From the UHGV virus genome UHGV-0134996: a stretch of 64,000 nt of DNA. One strand, written 5' to 3'. Within the stretch, counting starts at the first letter, position 1, and every line of letters begins with the position of its first letter. The translations under genes and the position numbers were made by a program. Source of the DNA: a virus. This document shows, in pieces, positions 3,349-44,661 of the stretch. The notes under the pieces were generated by a model. It saw nothing but the letters and a program-made list of their open reading frames with translations, did not search any database and was not told the origin of the DNA.

Positions 3349-4833
3349 TTATTCGTTAAGCCATGCAAGAGCTTCATCAACCTGCGCTTCGTCTTCGACG
3401 CTAAGCACTTCATCCTGGGGAACATAATCCGCCAGCATAGCGAAACAATATGTATCCCAATGGTCTGGTGAGTGCAGGTTGAGTTTTTTCTTCATATCCT
3501 CCTTACTCATCACCTTCCATTGACCTGCGGAGTTAATCCCTACAGGGATTTTCGACGCTTCCTCAATAGTTTCATTACCCTTATCCAGTCTCATACGACC
3601 AGATTTTACTGCCTCTGCGGCTTGAACGTTGGCATAAGCACGTTTATCAAAGTACAGGCTCTTATCTTCACGGCTATGCATCTTTTTACCCCAGCGTATA
3701 CGCTGTACGGTAATACCATAATGCTCGTACATCAGATCCGCCGTTGCTTTACCCAGGCCATCGCCGTCTATCGCTATGGTGATATTTGGGAATCGCTCAG
3801 GATTGCATTCTGCGAAAATTTTGGCGGCAAGCTGCGTTTCTGTAACGTCTGTGTATTCCAGCATTCGATAGTTGATTACACGGCGTTTATTTCGCTGGCC
3901 GGACACCATCATGATATTGATAACGGACTTATCCCGTCCCGTACCACCAGCAACGTCCACACATGCAAGCCAGCCCCATCCTTTTGCAATCTTGACTTTC
4001 CGCCGCGTTGCACGTTCAACCTCATCACGCCCAAGAAGGAAGCCATCCTGTGATTTAGGGAATAGGCCGCGTACCTTAATCATGTACATAGGGTTATCAC
4101 GCCCGCCGTACTCCGCCAGCTTCATTTTGATAAATGCTGGCGTTACCAGCGGTGATTCCTCACTGTTAAGCGTGATCGCCGTATAAACGCCATCTGGGTT
4201 ACCAGGACGCTTGGCCAGTTTATGGTGAGTATCGTAGAAATAGCCGCTTGGGCGTGTAGGCTGTGACAGTAATAAGATGCGGTTATCCTGTCCGGTAAGA
4301 GCACCGGTGATGATACCGAAAGCTCTATCACTGACACCGGAGGCTTCATCGATAATATACAGAAGATGATCTGCGTGTTCACCGGCGAGAGCTTCTTCAC
4401 TTCCCAGACGAAAGCCCTTCGGTACTACAGTCCATACACCTTTACCAGTAACCTCATAGAAAGCGGTTTCTGTCAGAACAAAATAATCAGCAAGCCATGG
4501 AAAACGGCTGGTGGCAGTAGCCCAGTTTATCTTGATGTACTTGAATATACCGGTCATTACCTGCTGAATTTTGTTCGCAACGATAATGGCGCGGGCACCG
4601 GGATACATGATTATGAACAACATGATCATGATAGAAGTCATGTCTGATTTCCCGGTACCGTGACCAGACGAAACAGATGTCTTGCTACCCTGTTCCTGCA
4701 CAGACTCAATAATCAGATCCTGCTGCCAGGTAGGTGTTTTGCCGAATAAAACATCAGCGGCCGCAATCCAGTCATAACGATATAGCGCCACCAGCTCGCG
4801 CCAACGTGGATCCGTTACGCAACTTCTGGCCAT
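3349..4833 (-). CDS. pacB: PacB, terminase large subunit
   Basis: 494 aa; ATP-binding motif region; start overlaps pacA stop (TAATG); position as in P1 pac operon. Confidence 0.85.
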
Positions 4834-6026
4834 TAATCATCATCCCCGTATAGCTTGCGGGTAACTTCTTCGTCTTCCTCCTCGTCTTCGTCCAGGTCTT
4901 GTTCCAGCCATGGGTCGTTTGATACACCTTCAGTATCAACATCTCCATAACCGCCTGTATCAACGATATCGGCGATTTCTTCCCTACGCTGCTCAATCCA
5001 CAATGCGGCATCGGCGCGGCGGTTGGCGGCCCGTTCTCGCGCAACTTTGTCCAGATCGTCAAGAGAAGGGCCACCGACGGCTGTTTGCCTTTCCTCATCA
5101 TCGGTATTGGTCTTAGGAGCACGCAGATCGGCTTTGATTTGCTCCAGCATCAGGGGCGGCACTTTCCCGCCATGCGCCTCGATGAATTCAGCTGCTTCCA
5201 GCACTGACCAGTTATTTTCACGCTTTCGTTCGTATGCCAGCTTAACAATGCCAGCTTGCCCCATAGATAAAGCGTGCTTTTCCGCCTCCCGGCTTTCTTT
5301 TCGATAGTTATTCCGGATGCTGTAAATGGTGTTGATCAGGCTGCTTATCTGCGCGGAACAGCTGTTTAGCATGCTCGCGATACGATATTCAGGCGGAGTC
5401 CCTTCACCATCGTCTTTTTGCTGATCGCGCATTTCCTGCACCAGACGAATACACGTATCCCTGGCGTTCTCCAGCATAAGGAGATGAGAAAGAGACTTTT
5501 CAAGAAGAGTGGTTTCCAGAACATCGGCCCCGGACCGACGCAACATAGCGCGCGCGGCCTTCCGCGCTTCAACGTTATCTATCAGGTAATCGTCAGCTTC
5601 GAATTCAAAGCGTTCACCATCATCATCCAGGGTGTCGCGTTCCAGGCGATCACGTAAGGTCCGGTGGGCGCGGGTGATCACGTCATGATCATCAGAACGA
5701 TCATTTATGCGCTTATTCTGGCGCTTCGCGTTCTCGACTGCGGCACTGACAACAGCATTAACTCTTTGTTTTTCAGCCATTTCAGCCACAATGTGATCAC
5801 CTGCATGTTGATCATTAGCGTGATCAATGATCATGCTTTTTAGTGGTTTTCTGACAGGCTTATTTGGCTTACGGCTGTCCGCTGTTCCGGTGTCTTCTTT
5901 GAATGCACGGAGATAACGACGTGCGGTGTTTGGGTTGAGATTAAACTCGGCGGCATATTGTGCGATGGTGTAACCACCATCTCGCGCCAGGCGAGCAAAA
6001 TTCTTCTTGTGATCGTCCCAGGTCAC
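4833..6026 (-). CDS. pacA: PacA, terminase small subunit (pac recognition)
   Basis: 397 aa, N-terminus [20 protein letters not shown], acidic C-terminus; contains the pac GATC clusters; GTG start with AAGGAAG RBS. Confidence 0.85.
5645..5835. other. pac: pac packaging site inside pacA
   Basis: Two clusters of TGATCA/GATC hexamers (about 5648-5703 and 5792-5833) about 90 bp apart, the P1 pac architecture. Confidence 0.75.
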
Positions 6027-6112: not shown

Positions 6113-6565
6113 TCAGATACGTGCGGATGTGGCATTACCGTAATGACGGTGCTGACGGACCACCTTATTGAAAAGTTGACGCGCCATCACCCAAGGCTGG
6201 TGCTCCCGGCGTTCCTTTTCGTCCTGCGTCATATAGAGTTCGTTCTGGAGTTTTTCATCAAACCGGCGCGGAGCGCGGCTGCGGCGAAAGAATTCAGGAT
6301 TCAGAGAGTGGATCTGAAATCTACGTGGGCGTGTACTGTCATCAATCAAAACAGACGAATACTTAGACACAGCGATAGCCTTTAAGCGCAGATAAACATC
6401 GCGCTTATCGACATCCAGATGCGGGTATTCCTTTTCAAGAATTGCTGCGAGTTCTTTCGCTGATAGAAGAGATTTAGTGCGGATCATGTAATCCGCAATC
6501 TCGTACGATGTTATTCGTGAGTGATTTATTTCCATGAAGTGGCGTCCCTGCCAGTTAAGTAACAT
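6113..6565 (-). CDS. lpa: Lpa, late promoter activator
   Basis: 150-aa ORF directly upstream of pacA, P1 position of lpa (gene 10). Confidence 0.7.
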   Translation of the reverse strand: MLLNWQGRHFMEINHSRITSYEIADYMIRTKSLLSAKELAAILEKEYPHLDVDKRDVYLRLKAIAVSKYSSVLIDDSTRPRRFQIHSLNPEFFRRSRAPRRFDEKLQNELYMTQDEKERREHQPWVMARQLFNKVVRQHRHYGNATSARI

Positions 6566-6637
6566 CCTGTCACCTACTGATTAGCCCATGTCAACTAATC
6601 AACGTGGAATATAATACCCTCGATTAAAGAAATAGCA

Positions 6638-6654
6638 ATACATTAGAGCAATTT
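6638..6654 (-). promoter_or_regulatory. C1 operator-like site upstream of lpa
   Basis: ATACATTAGAGCAATTT, partial match (ATTAGAGCAAT core). Confidence 0.45.
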
Positions 6655-7697
6655 TATCTAACGCTCGACGAGTGACTTGTGATAGCGCCGACTCCAAGCG
6701 CGTAATCAAAGAACAATCGTTGATGCATCGCCAGCCTACCGTGCGTCTTCTCCCAATTATCGCGGTCACGCTCAATATCACGCTGGCATGACTGGCACAG
6801 AGGAATAGCATAAATGTCATGCGCGCATAATCGACTATGACGAACGATATAAGGCGTAATGTGAGCGCCAGCTCCCGCAGCTCCACAGCCACAGCATGGA
6901 CGGGAAGCCACAAAGTCCATGTACTCGGGCAATTTTAGCGATTGAAGTTTTGGTATTTTGAAATGCGCCATACCTGGGTCGGAGTCAACATCCACAGGGC
7001 ATACTTTTGCACGCATCGGCGCGGCGCGTTCTTCCATCATCTGAACATATGCTGTAGCGCGATCGTCATACGGGCGAATATCCGCCTCTTTCAGAGGTCC
7101 GCTATCCTGCGGAGTAGCCTTCATCTTATTTATTGATATGCGGCAGACTTCTTCCGGCATCAGGTGCATCATGTTGCGCATGAAAGCCCACCAGCACAGC
7201 TCCTGAATACTTAAATCATGGCTATTTGAAAGGCCCATTTCCTGACGGGCGACATCCAGTATCCAGTTAACGCGATTATTGTGCAGCGTTTCTTTCAGCT
7301 CATTAAAACCACGCATCCGGTAATGGTTATCGTGATGCCAGCACAACAACACCGCGCTATTGTCTCGTTCAGCGTGGACAATATGGTTGTCACACCAACT
7401 ACGATCTGCGGCCTGGCATTGACCCTCTTTCCTACGCAACCACGCCACCAGCGCGTCAATTCCACCAATACGGCGAAACAGTTCATCGCTGTTAAAAAAC
7501 GGCTGCAACGCCTCATTTGTTGCCATGGTTTGCTCGGTAACAACGAGGCCGTCTTCCATGTGCTCGATTAACTCACGCGGCACCGGCTCCATAATAAATT
7601 TACGGCCAGCCTCCACCAGCTTTCTGACCTCCTGATCCACTTTGAACGTGGCGACGCCAAGCTCTTTTTGTACAAAGGGAGTAATTACGGCTTTCAC
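6654..7697 (-). CDS. hypothetical protein with C-terminal cysteine cluster (P1 pdcB position)
   Basis: 347-aa ORF; CCGCG...C..C-x2-C cluster suggests metal binding; sits between doc and lpa. Confidence 0.55.
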
Positions 7698-7724
7698 ATC
7701 ACACCTTTCATCACTGATTGGGCT

Positions 7725-7925
7725 TTATCTGCTGCCCGGCATTCTCTGTTTAAGCACAACCATTTCCTGACGGCATAACACAGCAATAGCGGTCCTGGCA
7801 CCAATTTGCTTACCAACCAGGTATTGCTTTACCTCGCGGCGACTCACGCCATCAAGAAGCATCTTTAACGCTTCACGGGACAATTTGTTGTATTTACGTG
7901 CCATTAATCTACTCCGCGGAACCAT
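7725..7925 (-). CDS. small basic hypothetical protein (P1 pdcA position)
   Basis: 66-aa ORF downstream of doc, overlaps doc 3' end by 17 nt. Confidence 0.35.
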
Positions 7926-8289
7926 ACAATCTACGTAACGTGTCGGCGACAGAAGATACAGATATCTCTCCTGTCGCAGCCCCTACGGTAAGGTCTGCCA
8001 GTTCAGGTGAATCAAATACCTGCACCCCGTTACGGCGTAGAAATAACAGCGCACTGTTTAGCGCGGTACGCTTATTGGCATCATTGAATATATGCCCTCT
8101 CGCTGTAGCCACCAGGTAGGTGGCGGAGACTTCGAAAAGGTCGGTGATCTCTTCGTAGGCAACTCTGGCCTGAACTCTCCCGATAATGGCCTCTGCCCTA
8201 CCCGGATCTGACATTCCCGGCAGGCCGCCGTAGCGGTTTATATTCGCATCATGAAGCGCAATAAGTTCTTCCGGTGATATATGCCTCAT
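7909..8289 (-). CDS. doc: Doc toxin (Fic-fold kinase) of phd-doc addiction module
   Basis: 126 aa; start overlaps phd stop (TAATG); sequence and size as P1 Doc. Confidence 0.92.
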
Positions 8290-41468: not shown

Positions 41469-42278
41469 ATGCAAGAAGAGAAACAACACTACCTCTACGT
41501 TCTGGTGCCAGAGAACGGAGATACTTTTAAAATCGGCATTTCATGTGGTCCATTGGCACGGTTTAAAGGACTACAAGTGAGTCCCGATTTTGCGCTTTCA
41601 CGGGTCTATCGTGGTACGCGTTTGGCAATGGTTAATCTTGAGCGGGCTTTACACGCAACCTTTTTCCCCTGGAATGCGCCGTGGGAGAAAAGCGTCGGTG
41701 GCGGGCATACTGAATGGTTTACACGAGAGTGTCTTGATAAGGTTTTGGCTCATATCGAATATCTAAATGATATGTGGGGAGGGATTCTCGAGCGCATTAA
41801 GTCGAATGATTTACTTCAGCGTCCAGTAGATGCTGCTTGCTCTTTCGAAAAAGAGCTGGATGTTACTTCTATCGTGACTTTCAAAGATGACGCAGGAATG
41901 AGGGACGTGGCTTATGTCTCCATATCTGGCTATGAACCGGACGCGATCCGCGCTCAATGTGAATTGCTGAAAGCAATGTTTATGCTTCGGACTAAATATC
42001 CCTGGGATACAGGGCGGGTGTGCTTCCCTATGGAAGAGTTAACCGCCACCATTGATTCCCAGCTTTACCACGATAATCCAGAGAAGTTTTTTAGCCTTTT
42101 AGCCGGTAATGGGCTTAACTGTGTGTCCGGGCTGGGGCGAAGTAGAATCCAACATGCCTCGCTCTTCGGTCCCTTCTTTTACGATCGACACGGGTACTTT
42201 GAGGCTGAACTTCCGGCGCTTACGCGTGCTATAGATACTATCGATTTCGAACGATTATTCGCTGCTCTTAGCAAATAA
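41469..42278 (+). CDS. T5orf172 (GIY-YIG-like) domain protein with unknown C-terminal domain
   Basis: 269 aa, ATG start; N-terminal YLYVLVPENGDTFKIGIS...GGGHTEWF matches T5orf172/MUG113 signature. Confidence 0.6.
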   Translation: MQEEKQHYLYVLVPENGDTFKIGISCGPLARFKGLQVSPDFALSRVYRGTRLAMVNLERALHATFFPWNAPWEKSVGGGHTEWFTRECLDKVLAHIEYLNDMWGGILERIKSNDLLQRPVDAACSFEKELDVTSIVTFKDDAGMRDVAYVSISGYEPDAIRAQCELLKAMFMLRTKYPWDTGRVCFPMEELTATIDSQLYHDNPEKFFSLLAGNGLNCVSGLGRSRIQHASLFGPFFYDRHGYFEAELPALTRAIDTIDFERLFAALSK

Positions 42279-42285
42279 CACTGAT

Positions 42286-42306
42286 GCCCCTGAACGGGGC
42301 TTTTTT
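42286..42306 (+). terminator. rho-independent terminator after the T5orf172-like gene
   Basis: GCCCCTGAACGGGGC hairpin followed by TTTTTT. Confidence 0.8.
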
Positions 42307-42446
42307 GTGCCCTCCTTGTAACTCTCAATCGTGCAAAATGAACCAAACATGCAGAGAATGCTATGTACAAGCATCTACGCATACATTATTATTTTATGCA
42401 GCATTTTTAATTAAATTCAAAAATACAGCATAAAGGATGACTTTCG

Positions 42447-43643
42447 ATGAGTGATTCCAGCCAGCTTCACAAGGTTGCTCAAAGAGCAAACAGAATGCTC
42501 AATGTTCTGACTGAACAAGTACAGTTGCAAAAGGATGAGCTACACGCGAACGAGTTTTACCAGGTCTATGCGAAAGCGGCACTGGCAAAATTGCCTCTAT
42601 TGACTCGAGCGAACGTTGACTATGCCGTAAGTGAAATGGAAGAAAAGGGTTATGTTTTCGATAAACGCCCTGCTGGCTCTTCAATGAAATATGCGATGTC
42701 AATTCAGAACATCATTGACATATATGAACATCGCGGAGTGCCAAAATACCGGGATCGCTACAGCGAAGCGTATGTGATTTTCATCTCCAATCTTAAAGGC
42801 GGTGTGTCAAAAACTGTATCGACGGTTTCTCTGGCGCATGCAATGCGTGCCCACCCTCATCTTCTGATGGAAGATTTAAGGATTCTGGTTATTGACCTTG
42901 ATCCGCAATCTTCAGCAACGATGTTTTTAAGCCATAAACACTCTATTGGTATCGTAAACGCAACATCTGCACAGGCTATGTTGCAGAATGTAAGCCGTGA
43001 AGAGCTGTTAGAGGAGTTTATTGTTCCTTCTGTTGTACCTGGGGTTGACGTTATGCCTGCGTCGATTGACGATGCCTTTATTGCATCCGATTGGAGAGAG
43101 CTGTGCAATGAGCATCTACCGGGTCAGAACATCCATGCTGTCCTGAAAGAAAATGTGATTGATAAGCTGAAGAGCGATTATGACTTTATCCTCGTTGATA
43201 GTGGTCCTCACCTTGACGCCTTCCTGAAAAATGCTTTGGCCTCGGCCAATATACTGTTTACACCTCTGCCGCCAGCAACTGTCGATTTCCACTCATCGCT
43301 TAAATACGTTGCCCGCCTTCCTGAGTTGGTGAAACTCATTTCGGATGAAGGCTGCGAGTGCCAGCTTGCGACTAACATTGGTTTTATGTCCAAGTTGAGT
43401 AACAAGGCAGATCATAAGTATTGCCATAGCCTGGCTAAAGAAGTGTTCGGTGGGGATATGCTCGATGTCGTCCTCCCTCGCCTTGACGGTTTTGAACGTT
43501 GCGGCGAGTCTTTTGACACTGTTATTTCAGCTAACCCGGCAACGTATGTTGGTAGTGCTGATGCATTGAAGAACGCGCGAATTGCCGCGGAAGATTTTGC
43601 TAAAGCAGTTTTTGACCGTATTGAATTTATCAGATCTAACTGA
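42447..43643 (+). CDS. parA: ParA partition ATPase
   Basis: 398 aa; deviant Walker A (NLKGGVSKT); size and sequence as P1 ParA. Confidence 0.92.
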   Translation: MSDSSQLHKVAQRANRMLNVLTEQVQLQKDELHANEFYQVYAKAALAKLPLLTRANVDYAVSEMEEKGYVFDKRPAGSSMKYAMSIQNIIDIYEHRGVPKYRDRYSEAYVIFISNLKGGVSKTVSTVSLAHAMRAHPHLLMEDLRILVIDLDPQSSATMFLSHKHSIGIVNATSAQAMLQNVSREELLEEFIVPSVVPGVDVMPASIDDAFIASDWRELCNEHLPGQNIHAVLKENVIDKLKSDYDFILVDSGPHLDAFLKNALASANILFTPLPPATVDFHSSLKYVARLPELVKLISDEGCECQLATNIGFMSKLSNKADHKYCHSLAKEVFGGDMLDVVLPRLDGFERCGESFDTVISANPATYVGSADALKNARIAAEDFAKAVFDRIEFIRSN

Positions 43644-43659
43644 GGAGTAAGAAACCCCC

Positions 43660-44661
43660 ATGTCAAAGAAAAACAGACCAACAATTGGGCGAACCCTTAA
43701 TCCTTCAATATTAAGCGGATTTGATAGTTCTTCAGCCTCTGGCGATCGAGTCGAGCAGGTATTCAAGTTATCAACTGGTCGCCAGGCCACATTTATTGAA
43801 GAGGTAATACCTCCGAACCAGGTAGAAAGCGATACCTTTGTTGATCAGCATAACAACGGGCGTGACCAGGCATCTCTTACGCCAAAATCATTAAAAAGTA
43901 TCCGAAGCACTATTAAGCATCAGCAATTTTACCCTGCAATAGGTGTCAGACGGGCTACAGGGAAAATTGAAATTTTGGATGGTTCCCGGCGTCGAGCTTC
44001 TGCCATCTTAGAGAACGTAGGGTTGCGGGTTTTAGTCACGGACCAGGAGATCAGCGTTCAGGAAGTGCAAAATTTAGCGAAAGACGTTCAGACAGCATTG
44101 CAGCACAGCATTCGAGAAATAGGTCTGCGTTTGATGCGAATGAAAAATGATGGGATGAGTCAGAAGGATATTGCAGCCAAAGAAGGGCTGTCTCAGGCGA
44201 AGGTCACGCGTGCTCTCCAGGCAGCGAGTGCTCCGGAAGAATTAGTCGCCCTTTTCCCTGTGCAGTCGGAATTAACCTTTTCGGACTACAAAACGCTTTG
44301 TGCTGTTGGCGACGAAATGGGGAACAAGAATTTAGAGTTTGATCAGCTTATTCAAAACATATCCCCGGAAATAAACGACATCTTATCCATTGAAGAAATG
44401 GCCGAAGATGAAGTTAAAAATAAAATCCTGCGCTTGATAACAAAGGAAGCCTCACTACTCACGGATAAAGGTTCTAAAGATAAGTCCGTAGTTACTGAAT
44501 TATGGAAATTTGAGGACAAGGATCGCTTTGCAAGGAAGCGCGTGAAAGGCCGTGCATTTTCTTATGAGTTTAATCGACTCTCAAAAGAGTTACAGGAAGA
44601 ACTCGACAGGATGATTGGGCATATCCTTAGAAAGAGCCTCGATAAAAAGCCGAAGCCTTAA
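43660..44661 (+). CDS. parB: ParB partition protein
   Basis: 333 aa; MSKKNRPTIGRTLNPSILSGFD... as P1 ParB. Confidence 0.92.
   Translation: MSKKNRPTIGRTLNPSILSGFDSSSASGDRVEQVFKLSTGRQATFIEEVIPPNQVESDTFVDQHNNGRDQASLTPKSLKSIRSTIKHQQFYPAIGVRRATGKIEILDGSRRRASAILENVGLRVLVTDQEISVQEVQNLAKDVQTALQHSIREIGLRLMRMKNDGMSQKDIAAKEGLSQAKVTRALQAASAPEELVALFPVQSELTFSDYKTLCAVGDEMGNKNLEFDQLIQNISPEINDILSIEEMAEDEVKNKILRLITKEASLLTDKGSKDKSVVTELWKFEDKDRFARKRVKGRAFSYEFNRLSKELQEELDRMIGHILRKSLDKKPKP

Follow-up and report, generated by a model that had tools for sequence, protein, structure and literature searches.

A predicted T5orf172-type nuclease gene resides at the edge of the p0111 replicon cassette of P1-like phage-plasmids

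The window analysed in this work is a stretch of 64,000 nucleotides from viral genome UHGV-0134996, read 5' to 3' on one strand. At 41469-42278 on the plus strand it carries an open reading frame with ATG start and 269 codons, found exactly where it was originally predicted. Its position is also as predicted, between the incA-like iterons, the last of which ends 30 bp before the ATG, and the parA promoter. Two parts can be recognized in the product: an N-terminal T5orf172/GIY-YIG domain (aa 1-105; 41469..41783, plus strand) and a C-terminal domain (aa 106-269, with the stop codon at 41784..42278, plus strand). The gene possesses its own terminator, in keeping with the prediction. Promoter/terminator scan places an intrinsic-terminator-like hairpin (GCCCC-TGAAC-GGGGC) with T-run at 42286..42307 on the plus strand, 3' of the stop codon, where it ends the nuclease transcription unit before Ppar.

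Judged from blastn against the P1 locus (L001), P1 annotation and junction sequences, the gene is the last element of an alternative ("p0111") replicon cassette, located at 40095..42344 on the plus strand. The cassette begins with five direct origin iterons (40108..40215, plus strand) that were detected by repeat search upstream of repA'; they share the core TTGACTATACGCGA, are spaced by ~21 bp and have a consensus identical with that of the diverged locus L003. They are followed by repA' (40292..41176, plus strand), coding for a Rep3-family iteron initiator of p0111 type (294 aa), identified by Pfam Rep3_C and Rep3_N, blastp, plasmid tblastn and RCS47 annotation. RepA' is 42% identical to P1 RepA and 45-54% to RepFIB-type Reps. 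The repA' coding region itself contains, at 40894-40909, a sequence resembling an iteron (TGTTGACTATAAGCGA; 94% match with the reference iteron). Repeat search further revealed an incA-like field downstream of repA' (41177..41438), composed of two direct (41177, 41201) and four inverted (41296, 41358, 41390, 41420) iterons.

Two additional structures were noticed in this field. A stable hairpin without U-run (41222-41253, about -16.6 kcal/mol) lies between the direct and the inverted iterons; its left arm, TTGACGCTGGTGGATTTT, is kept in L003 and contains the DnaA-box-like GGTGGAT, and the hairpin may be an attenuator or a host-factor site. At about 41358-41386, two iteron halves make up a perfect 12-bp palindrome, GACTACAGTCAA ttt TTGACTGTAGTC. 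Its form recalls the inverted-repeat operators to which Rep dimers bind in F and pPS10, and it could regulate transcription into the nuclease gene.

Both boundaries of the cassette are sharp with respect to P1. On the left, P1 homology (96%; upfA and left oriR with DnaA box and GATC sites) stops at 40094. On the right, it restarts (98.8%) at 42345, 67 bp from the nuclease stop codon and 19 bp before the -35 of Ppar. The 2,250 bp in between stand in place of P1 incC iterons, repA and incA. Ppar of the P1-type parAB operon (42364..42392, plus strand), a promoter-like site collinear with annotated P1 Ppar (L001 4017-4045), is the first P1-homologous feature to the right and is followed by parA, starting at 42447, and P1-type parB. 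Over 40200-43700 the window shares 98.7-99.5% identity with P1-like phage-plasmids of the SJ46/RCS47/JL22 type; here the match to classical P1 starts only at the par promoter.

The P1 replicon (oriR/incC-repA-incA, IncY) thus shares with the cassette region the order of origin iterons, rep and control iterons, the left oriR with its DnaA box and GATC sites, and the par operon at the right, and differs in RepA, in iterons and in having no gene between incA and Ppar. The last point agrees with what the original prediction had stated of P1: according to P1 annotation, incA iteron 1 ends ~190 bp before Ppar. The prediction had also taken the gene for cargo inserted into the P1 replicon. Comparison of the repA-par junction shows whole-cassette replacement instead, and insertion was rejected, as the entire 2,250-bp block is non-homologous to P1, not the gene alone.

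The reading frame is not a chance one. Of 49 related loci, 40 have it intact, its product is matched end to end by PHROG 2876 ("unknown function", E 1e-194), and RefSeq labels it "GIY-YIG nuclease family protein" on hundreds of plasmids; it is therefore a real gene. Its GC content is unremarkable. The generic annotation is thus already known, and the occurrence of the gene in the p0111 cassette is already on record in the literature; our literature search found no characterisation, and the published comparisons it retrieved call the gene "unknown".

The N-terminal domain matches Pfam T5orf172 (PF10544) over aa 8-85 with 26.9 bits (E 6.9e-6), the curated cut-off being 20. The predicted T5orf172/MUG113 signature therefore stands as far as T5orf172 is concerned; the MUG113 match is below its cut-off. 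Exhaustive profile search among 1.84 billion representatives retrieved 161 matches at E <=1e-3, nearly all of them to the N-terminal domain alone, and 138 of 144 relatives from the profile search also match PF10544. Four residues (G23, R31, E58 and E82) are invariant in the 144 relatives and six more (Y10, K21, H62, G79, T81 and F84) are present in 90% or more of them. By sequence comparison, the conserved residues match the Tyr, Arg and Glu that typify GIY-YIG enzymes, with K21-I-G23 in place of YIG, as is usual for the T5orf172 branch. The GIY-YIG-like fold that the original prediction called for is present as well: the predicted N-terminal domain adopts the GIY-YIG (URI) alpha/beta fold, and its closest fold is Slx1. 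Of the original interpretation, the nuclease-type fold is thus supported and cargo insertion is not. The protein is a predicted nuclease, for which we infer endonuclease activity from conserved residues and modelled fold.

Relatives of the N-terminal domain are joined to diverse partners. Among the 144 relatives, the commonest recognisable partner domains are Rep3_N/WH1 (four cases, best E 8e-14) and Rep3_C/WH2 (two cases); HTH, MarR, zinc-finger and RHH modules are found besides. P0018, P0048 and P0035 represent a T5orf172 subfamily in which the domain is joined to a true, basic Rep3_N (WH1), some members having Rep3_C (WH2) as well; DNA-binding modules of initiators are in effect equipped with a nuclease. 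The sequences make these three proteins good candidates for origin-directed nucleases outside Vibrio phages, similar to Odn (see below). Metagenome scan showed heterogeneous neighbourhoods of N-domain relatives, with no consistent rep/par association; genome scan for the context of P0048 found no match.

The C-terminal part was predicted to be uncharacterised, and its ~165 aa indeed match no Pfam family; the same is true for the C-terminal domains of all four homologues that possess it. These are the nuclease itself, P0004, P0010 and P0012. P0004 and P0010 are the only near-full-length relatives in the exhaustive search, and the C-terminal domain of P0012 was seen only with the C-domain profile. 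Genome and viral scans for the contexts of P0010 and P0012 found no match. Structure prediction, which had been proposed for this domain, points to a fold resembling WH1 of Rep initiators (two structure searches on two models). Its best structural matches are dimeric WH1 forms (6h24, 2z9o, 1hkq), and its best neighbours belong to Rep3 initiators (RepE of F, RepA of pPS10, pi of R6K and MSBI1.176 Rep). Paralogues of the nuclease that carry true Rep3_N and Rep3_C lend independent support, from sequence, to a link to replication initiators.

Unlike Rep3 initiators, the C-terminal domain lacks WH2, has no detectable sequence relationship to them and is acidic where Reps are basic. Search of PDB chain sequences with the C-domain profile returned nothing meaningful, and hhalign gave 0.1% probability against the RepA family of P1, p0111 and Providencia and 1.5% against Rep3_N-type C-termini of paralogues. 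A recent Odn-like chimera with P1 RepA or RepA' was rejected on these two values. All four homologues have an acidic domain (pI about 5.1, net charge -4 to -9) with no conserved basic residue, as against pI 9-10 in real Rep modules, those of paralogues included. Since acidity is common to all four and the best matches are dimeric WH1 forms, the domain may, as far as models can tell, mediate protein contacts rather than read DNA. A Rep-WH1-like but acidic C-terminal domain is a new feature that emerges from these models.

Distribution of the gene follows that of the cassette. The nuclease is encoded in 401 PLSDB plasmids (all at least 90% identical) and RepA' (at least 80% identity) in about 398, so their ratio is close to 1:1. 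The p0111 cassette was found in 419 of 5,426 complete E. coli genomes and the IncY segment in 359 complete E. coli genomes; in a survey of 55 P1-like elements, 24 were of p0111 type and 31 of the other (IncY) type (PMC9603915). Among 57 loci, every p0111 cassette retains the nuclease gene or a remnant of it, and no IncY allele with the gene occurs among loci examined. Presence and absence thus vary for the whole replicon block, not for the nuclease gene alone. Such linkage can be accounted for without invoking function, since whatever lies in a non-homologous block is co-inherited. Large plasmids with the nuclease gene are P1 cointegrates and were rejected as independent hosts of the cassette. 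A nuclease-like gene is absent downstream of the closest non-P1 Reps (54% identical; Providencia, Moellerella).

Protein search among 5.8 billion clustered proteins retrieved a single diverged full-length relative, P0004 (44% identity). It is encoded on a 95.7-kb P1-like contig in the same slot, in the order Rep, T5orf172, parA, parB, gp23. The gene is thus a long-standing resident of the cassette. The L003-type cassette is absent from complete E. coli genomes.

Some cassettes are found elsewhere than on plasmids. In complete E. coli genomes the p0111 cassette with nuclease gene is also chromosomal in eight places (e.g. NZ_CP093011.1 4393179-4395428), presumably within integrated P1-like elements. 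According to a 2025 preprint, p0111 repA is also present on a plasmid without phage genes that has become part of the S. Agona chromosome. The P1-like p0111 replicon is called "IncHI1B" by MOB-suite (PLSDB typing, L006-L011), a label that is likely misleading for a non-mobilizable phage-plasmid of ~97 kb.

Comparison of the two P1-like lineages revealed that the nuclease diverges much faster than its neighbours. Amino acid identity is 84% for RepA', 89% for ParA, 80% for gp23, 82% for gp22, 67% for ParB and 44% for the nuclease, which splits into 62% for the N-terminal and 31% for the C-terminal domain. Nucleotide similarity of the two lineages ends exactly at the domain border. With synonymous sites saturated, dN amounts to 0.28 for the N-terminal domain, 0.72 for the C-terminal domain, 0.12 for RepA', 0.07 for ParA and 0.13 for gp23. 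The C-terminal domain has therefore diverged at ~6x the rate of RepA', while the iterons of the element itself are unchanged. Frame, length and catalytic-type residues have been kept in the long term despite saturated synonymous divergence. Left of the replicon, upfB and ppfA (38080-39387 versus L003 5260-6497) are also unusually diverged, with 57% and 49% identity compared with 80-89% for gp22, gp23 and ParA; the surroundings of the replicon are thus a wider zone of rapid change.

Variation within populations was followed in 49 informative loci (44 IMG/VR contigs together with plasmid and phage records). Of these, 40 (82%) retain the complete 269-aa frame, and in nine (18%) it is disrupted, by at least five independent events. 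One null allele, a stop at codon 112, characterises a clade that includes pO111_2, the p0111 replicon-type reference plasmid, in which the gene is annotated as two CDSs (L011, NC_013370, 2601-3410). Another has a stop at codon 228 and is found in SJ46 (L029, IMGVR_UViG_2974549561_000001, 4324-5130). Further alleles have a stop at codon 68 or, in an E. albertii plasmid, a 2-bp frameshift. In one contig (L052, IMGVR_UViG_2645727563_000002), nucleotides 295-523 of the gene are replaced by a 1,763-bp IS200/IS605-type element (6295-8057) with a 389-aa TnpB-like ORF and a truncated TnpA-like ORF. As pO111_2 and SJ46 carry null alleles, experiments on either element would miss any function of the gene. 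Two rearranged copies were also noticed. P0005 (197 aa, E. coli plasmid) is a chimeric ORF of 78 unrelated residues and nuclease aa 105-223. In an IncFIB cointegrate (L061 6001-6258), an IS1-bounded deletion has removed repA' and left only nuclease aa 184-269.

Across the same loci, neighbouring genes are nearly always intact (repA' 49/50, parA 48/49, parB 49/49), and natural null alleles are maintained in complete plasmids of ~97 kb. Segregating changes tell the same story: 34 synonymous, 35 nonsynonymous (ratio 1.03) and 3 nonsense in the nuclease gene, compared with 48/4/0 in repA', 51/1/0 in parA and 82/22/0 in parB (nuclease versus pooled neighbours, Fisher's test, odds ratio 6.9, p = 7e-10). 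Pairwise pN/pS is 0.28 for the nuclease versus 0.00-0.07 for neighbours. The nuclease gene is dispensable for plasmid maintenance and its recent constraint is weak. The original prediction had been set against a conserved replicon component with a maintenance role; nulls in complete plasmids speak against such a role, and an essential maintenance gene was rejected in view of natural nulls in pO111_2 and SJ46 next to neighbours that stay intact.

What the gene does for the element can be approached mainly by analogy. Our preferred reading, which we hold tentatively, is that the p0111 cassette of P1-like phage-plasmids carries it as a passenger and that it encodes a two-domain accessory conflict nuclease. 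The T5orf172/GIY-YIG domain would be the catalytic part and the fast-diverging WH1-like domain the specificity module. In the plasmid-prophage state a small amount of the protein would be made, probably from transcription that starts at the autoregulated repA' promoter and reads through. The stretch from repA' to the nuclease ORF showed no terminator-like site in the scan, and strict and relaxed conservation-aware scans gave no convincing sigma-70 promoter upstream of the ORF common to both lineages. Like ICP1 Odn, it would attack the DNA of a foreign replicon, for example a rival plasmid of P1-like or iteron type or a phage that enters the cell. Targeting might proceed by protein contact, i.e. 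by dimerisation or by docking onto an iteron-bound Rep initiator, and not by direct DNA reading. The element itself would be immune simply because the cassette has replaced the rival replicon sequence, and repair of the cut rival could, as a possible side effect, spread the cassette in a homing-like fashion. The element's own origin is an unlikely target, because the C-terminal domain changes ~6x faster than RepA' while iterons stay unchanged. A conflict role fits the location of the gene at the cassette edge, the automatic self-immunity and the fast C-terminal domain.

Co-occurrence of the two replicon types could have spoken against targeting of rivals, and it did not. IncY and p0111 are found together in 2 genomes versus about 28 expected (359 IncY, 419 p0111, union 776; Poisson p about 4e-10), a rarity confounded by shared immunity and par incompatibility.

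General anti-phage defence or abortive infection from the prophage, an idea of the original prediction, is somewhat unlikely. The C-terminal domain would sense a phage protein or nucleic acid and free the nuclease to act on phage or host DNA, with no relation to replicons. A nuclease effector with fast-evolving C-terminal domain, frequent loss and its own moron-like terminator suits such a role, as do relatives located among toxin-antitoxin genes, resolvases and transposases in variable DNA and an acidic domain appropriate for a protein sensor. However, none of 5,027 PADLOC models matched (PADLOC-DB v2, E up to 1), nor did NCBIfam; the function of the PHROG family is unknown and no phenotype is reported in the literature found. 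Moreover, fold similarity and Rep3-fused paralogues point specifically to replication initiators.

We consider it unlikely that the protein is a free-standing homing endonuclease, one that cuts the cassette-less IncY allele near the incA/Ppar junction so that repair copies the nuclease gene and repA' into the rival and replaces its replicon. T5orf172 phage homing endonucleases do occur at edges of exchanged modules (PMC10448857), and the nuclease gene, with degenerate copies from at least five inactivations, likewise adjoins the right cassette boundary. The layout of N-terminal catalytic domain, linker and C-terminal domain is I-TevI-like, repeated pseudogenisation suits a homing cycle, and both replicon types are common (31 versus 24 of 55, PMC9603915; 359 versus 419 genomes). 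On the other hand, the polymorphism concerns the whole replicon, with neither a p0111 cassette without the gene nor an IncY allele with it in the loci examined. The protein is acidic, without zinc-finger or other basic DNA-binding modules that 87% of T5orf172 homing endonucleases possess. The cassette has long co-diverged with the backbone (RepA' 84%, comparable with gp23 80%), which does not suggest recent sweeps.

A more specific form of the conflict reading, which we regard as quite unlikely, is a Rep-guided nuclease. By imitating the surface through which an iteron initiator dimerises, its acidic WH1-like domain would dock on a rival Rep (e.g. IncY RepA) at iterons, whereupon the GIY-YIG domain would cut the origin; competing P1-like or iteron plasmids would be killed or cured, and repair from the resident element would convert their replicons to p0111. 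Were it true, it would be a molecular driver of the swapping of replicons (incompatibility groups) and of the near-complete mutual exclusion of IncY and p0111, and a protein-guided counterpart of Odn.

Very doubtful is a non-essential accessory of replication or copy number, whose WH1-like domain would pair with RepA' (dimer-monomer balance, handcuffing) or whose Slx1-like nuclease would process intermediates at iterons. The gene follows the control iterons directly, with no terminator between, and keeps this position in two lineages; WH1 is the dimerisation domain of Reps, the best structural matches are dimeric, and Slx1 is a structure-specific nuclease. Yet natural nulls, reference pO111_2 included, occur in complete plasmids of ~97 kb, no such gene lies downstream of the nearest Rep relatives outside P1, and 31% identity of the C-terminal domain versus 84% of RepA', with iterons unchanged, argues against co-evolution with the supposed partner. 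A decaying relic without current function, kept only through trapping in a non-recombining cassette, is highly improbable: the nonsynonymous/synonymous ratio, the three nonsense changes and the 18% of disrupted loci agree with it, but 82% of loci retain the full frame, pN/pS of about 0.28 is below 1, and ORF, length, N-terminal domain (62%) and all catalytic-type residues have been kept across saturated synonymous divergence.

The conflict nuclease reading matters since P1-like phage-plasmids commonly carry genes for resistance and virulence in E. coli, Salmonella and E. albertii. If the nuclease is directed at replicons, the Odn principle would extend from a Vibrio phage-satellite system to enterobacterial plasmids, and a nuclease-based layer would be added to plasmid incompatibility and exclusion. 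This could explain the exchange of whole replication modules between otherwise near-identical elements and would provide a candidate tool for selective plasmid curing. T5orf172 fusions to true Rep3 WH1/WH2, a subfamily newly recognized here from sequence, are further candidates for replicon-directed nucleases. If the gene has no phenotype, it would be a clear example of a trapped, slowly decaying passenger. New in either case are the exact cassette boundaries and population evidence for dispensability and fast evolution.

Among known nucleases, Slx1/HIGLE structure-specific enzymes of the URI type are distant: they are eukaryotic, carry a RING/PHD finger, need Slx4 and share 11-17% sequence identity. 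In the GIY-YIG homing endonucleases I-TevI and Seg of T4, a catalytic domain of ~100 aa at the N-terminus is connected through a flexible linker to a C-terminal domain of ~150 aa, total length being near 250-270 aa, and the p0111 nuclease has the same domain layout and total size. It belongs to another GIY-YIG branch (KIG for YIG), and its acidic C-terminal domain is unrelated to that of I-TevI, which is basic with zinc finger and HTH.

T5orf172 homing endonucleases of ICP1-, T5- and Plateaulake-type phages are closer. They share with the p0111 nuclease the Pfam family, the modularity of nuclease and specificity parts, the location at the boundary of an exchanged module and degenerate alleles. 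However, their hosts are lytic phages, not a plasmid-prophage replicon, and 87% of them carry CapR, DUF723 or DUF4397 zinc-finger DNA-binding repeats (PMC10448857), none of which was found in the p0111 protein. Nor did any p0111 allele turn up from which the nuclease gene alone is missing.

Among characterised systems, the closest is Odn (Gp88) of Vibrio phage ICP1, in which a T5orf172 nuclease is fused to a RepA_N domain taken over from the target. Odn cleaves the replication origin of PLE, a satellite, in a way that depends on iterons, appears to drive swapping of PLE replication modules and is inactive as an E180A mutant (PMC8263062). Both proteins are phage-encoded and combine T5orf172 with a second module, of initiator type in Odn and initiator-like by predicted fold in the p0111 protein, and the predicted catalytic E180 of Odn has its counterpart in invariant E82 of the p0111 nuclease. 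The order of domains is reversed in Odn, with RepA_N at the N-terminus and T5orf172 at the C-terminus. Its binding domain is 42% identical to the target RepA_N, whereas resemblance of the acidic p0111 C-terminal domain is at the level of fold only and concerns the unrelated Rep3/WH1 class. A further difference is that the p0111 nuclease gene lies inside the replicon cassette of its own element. Odn acts in a conflict of mobile elements linked to replication-module swaps; by analogy, the p0111 nuclease may play a similar role, and this testable link to Odn-type replicon warfare is drawn here for the first time.
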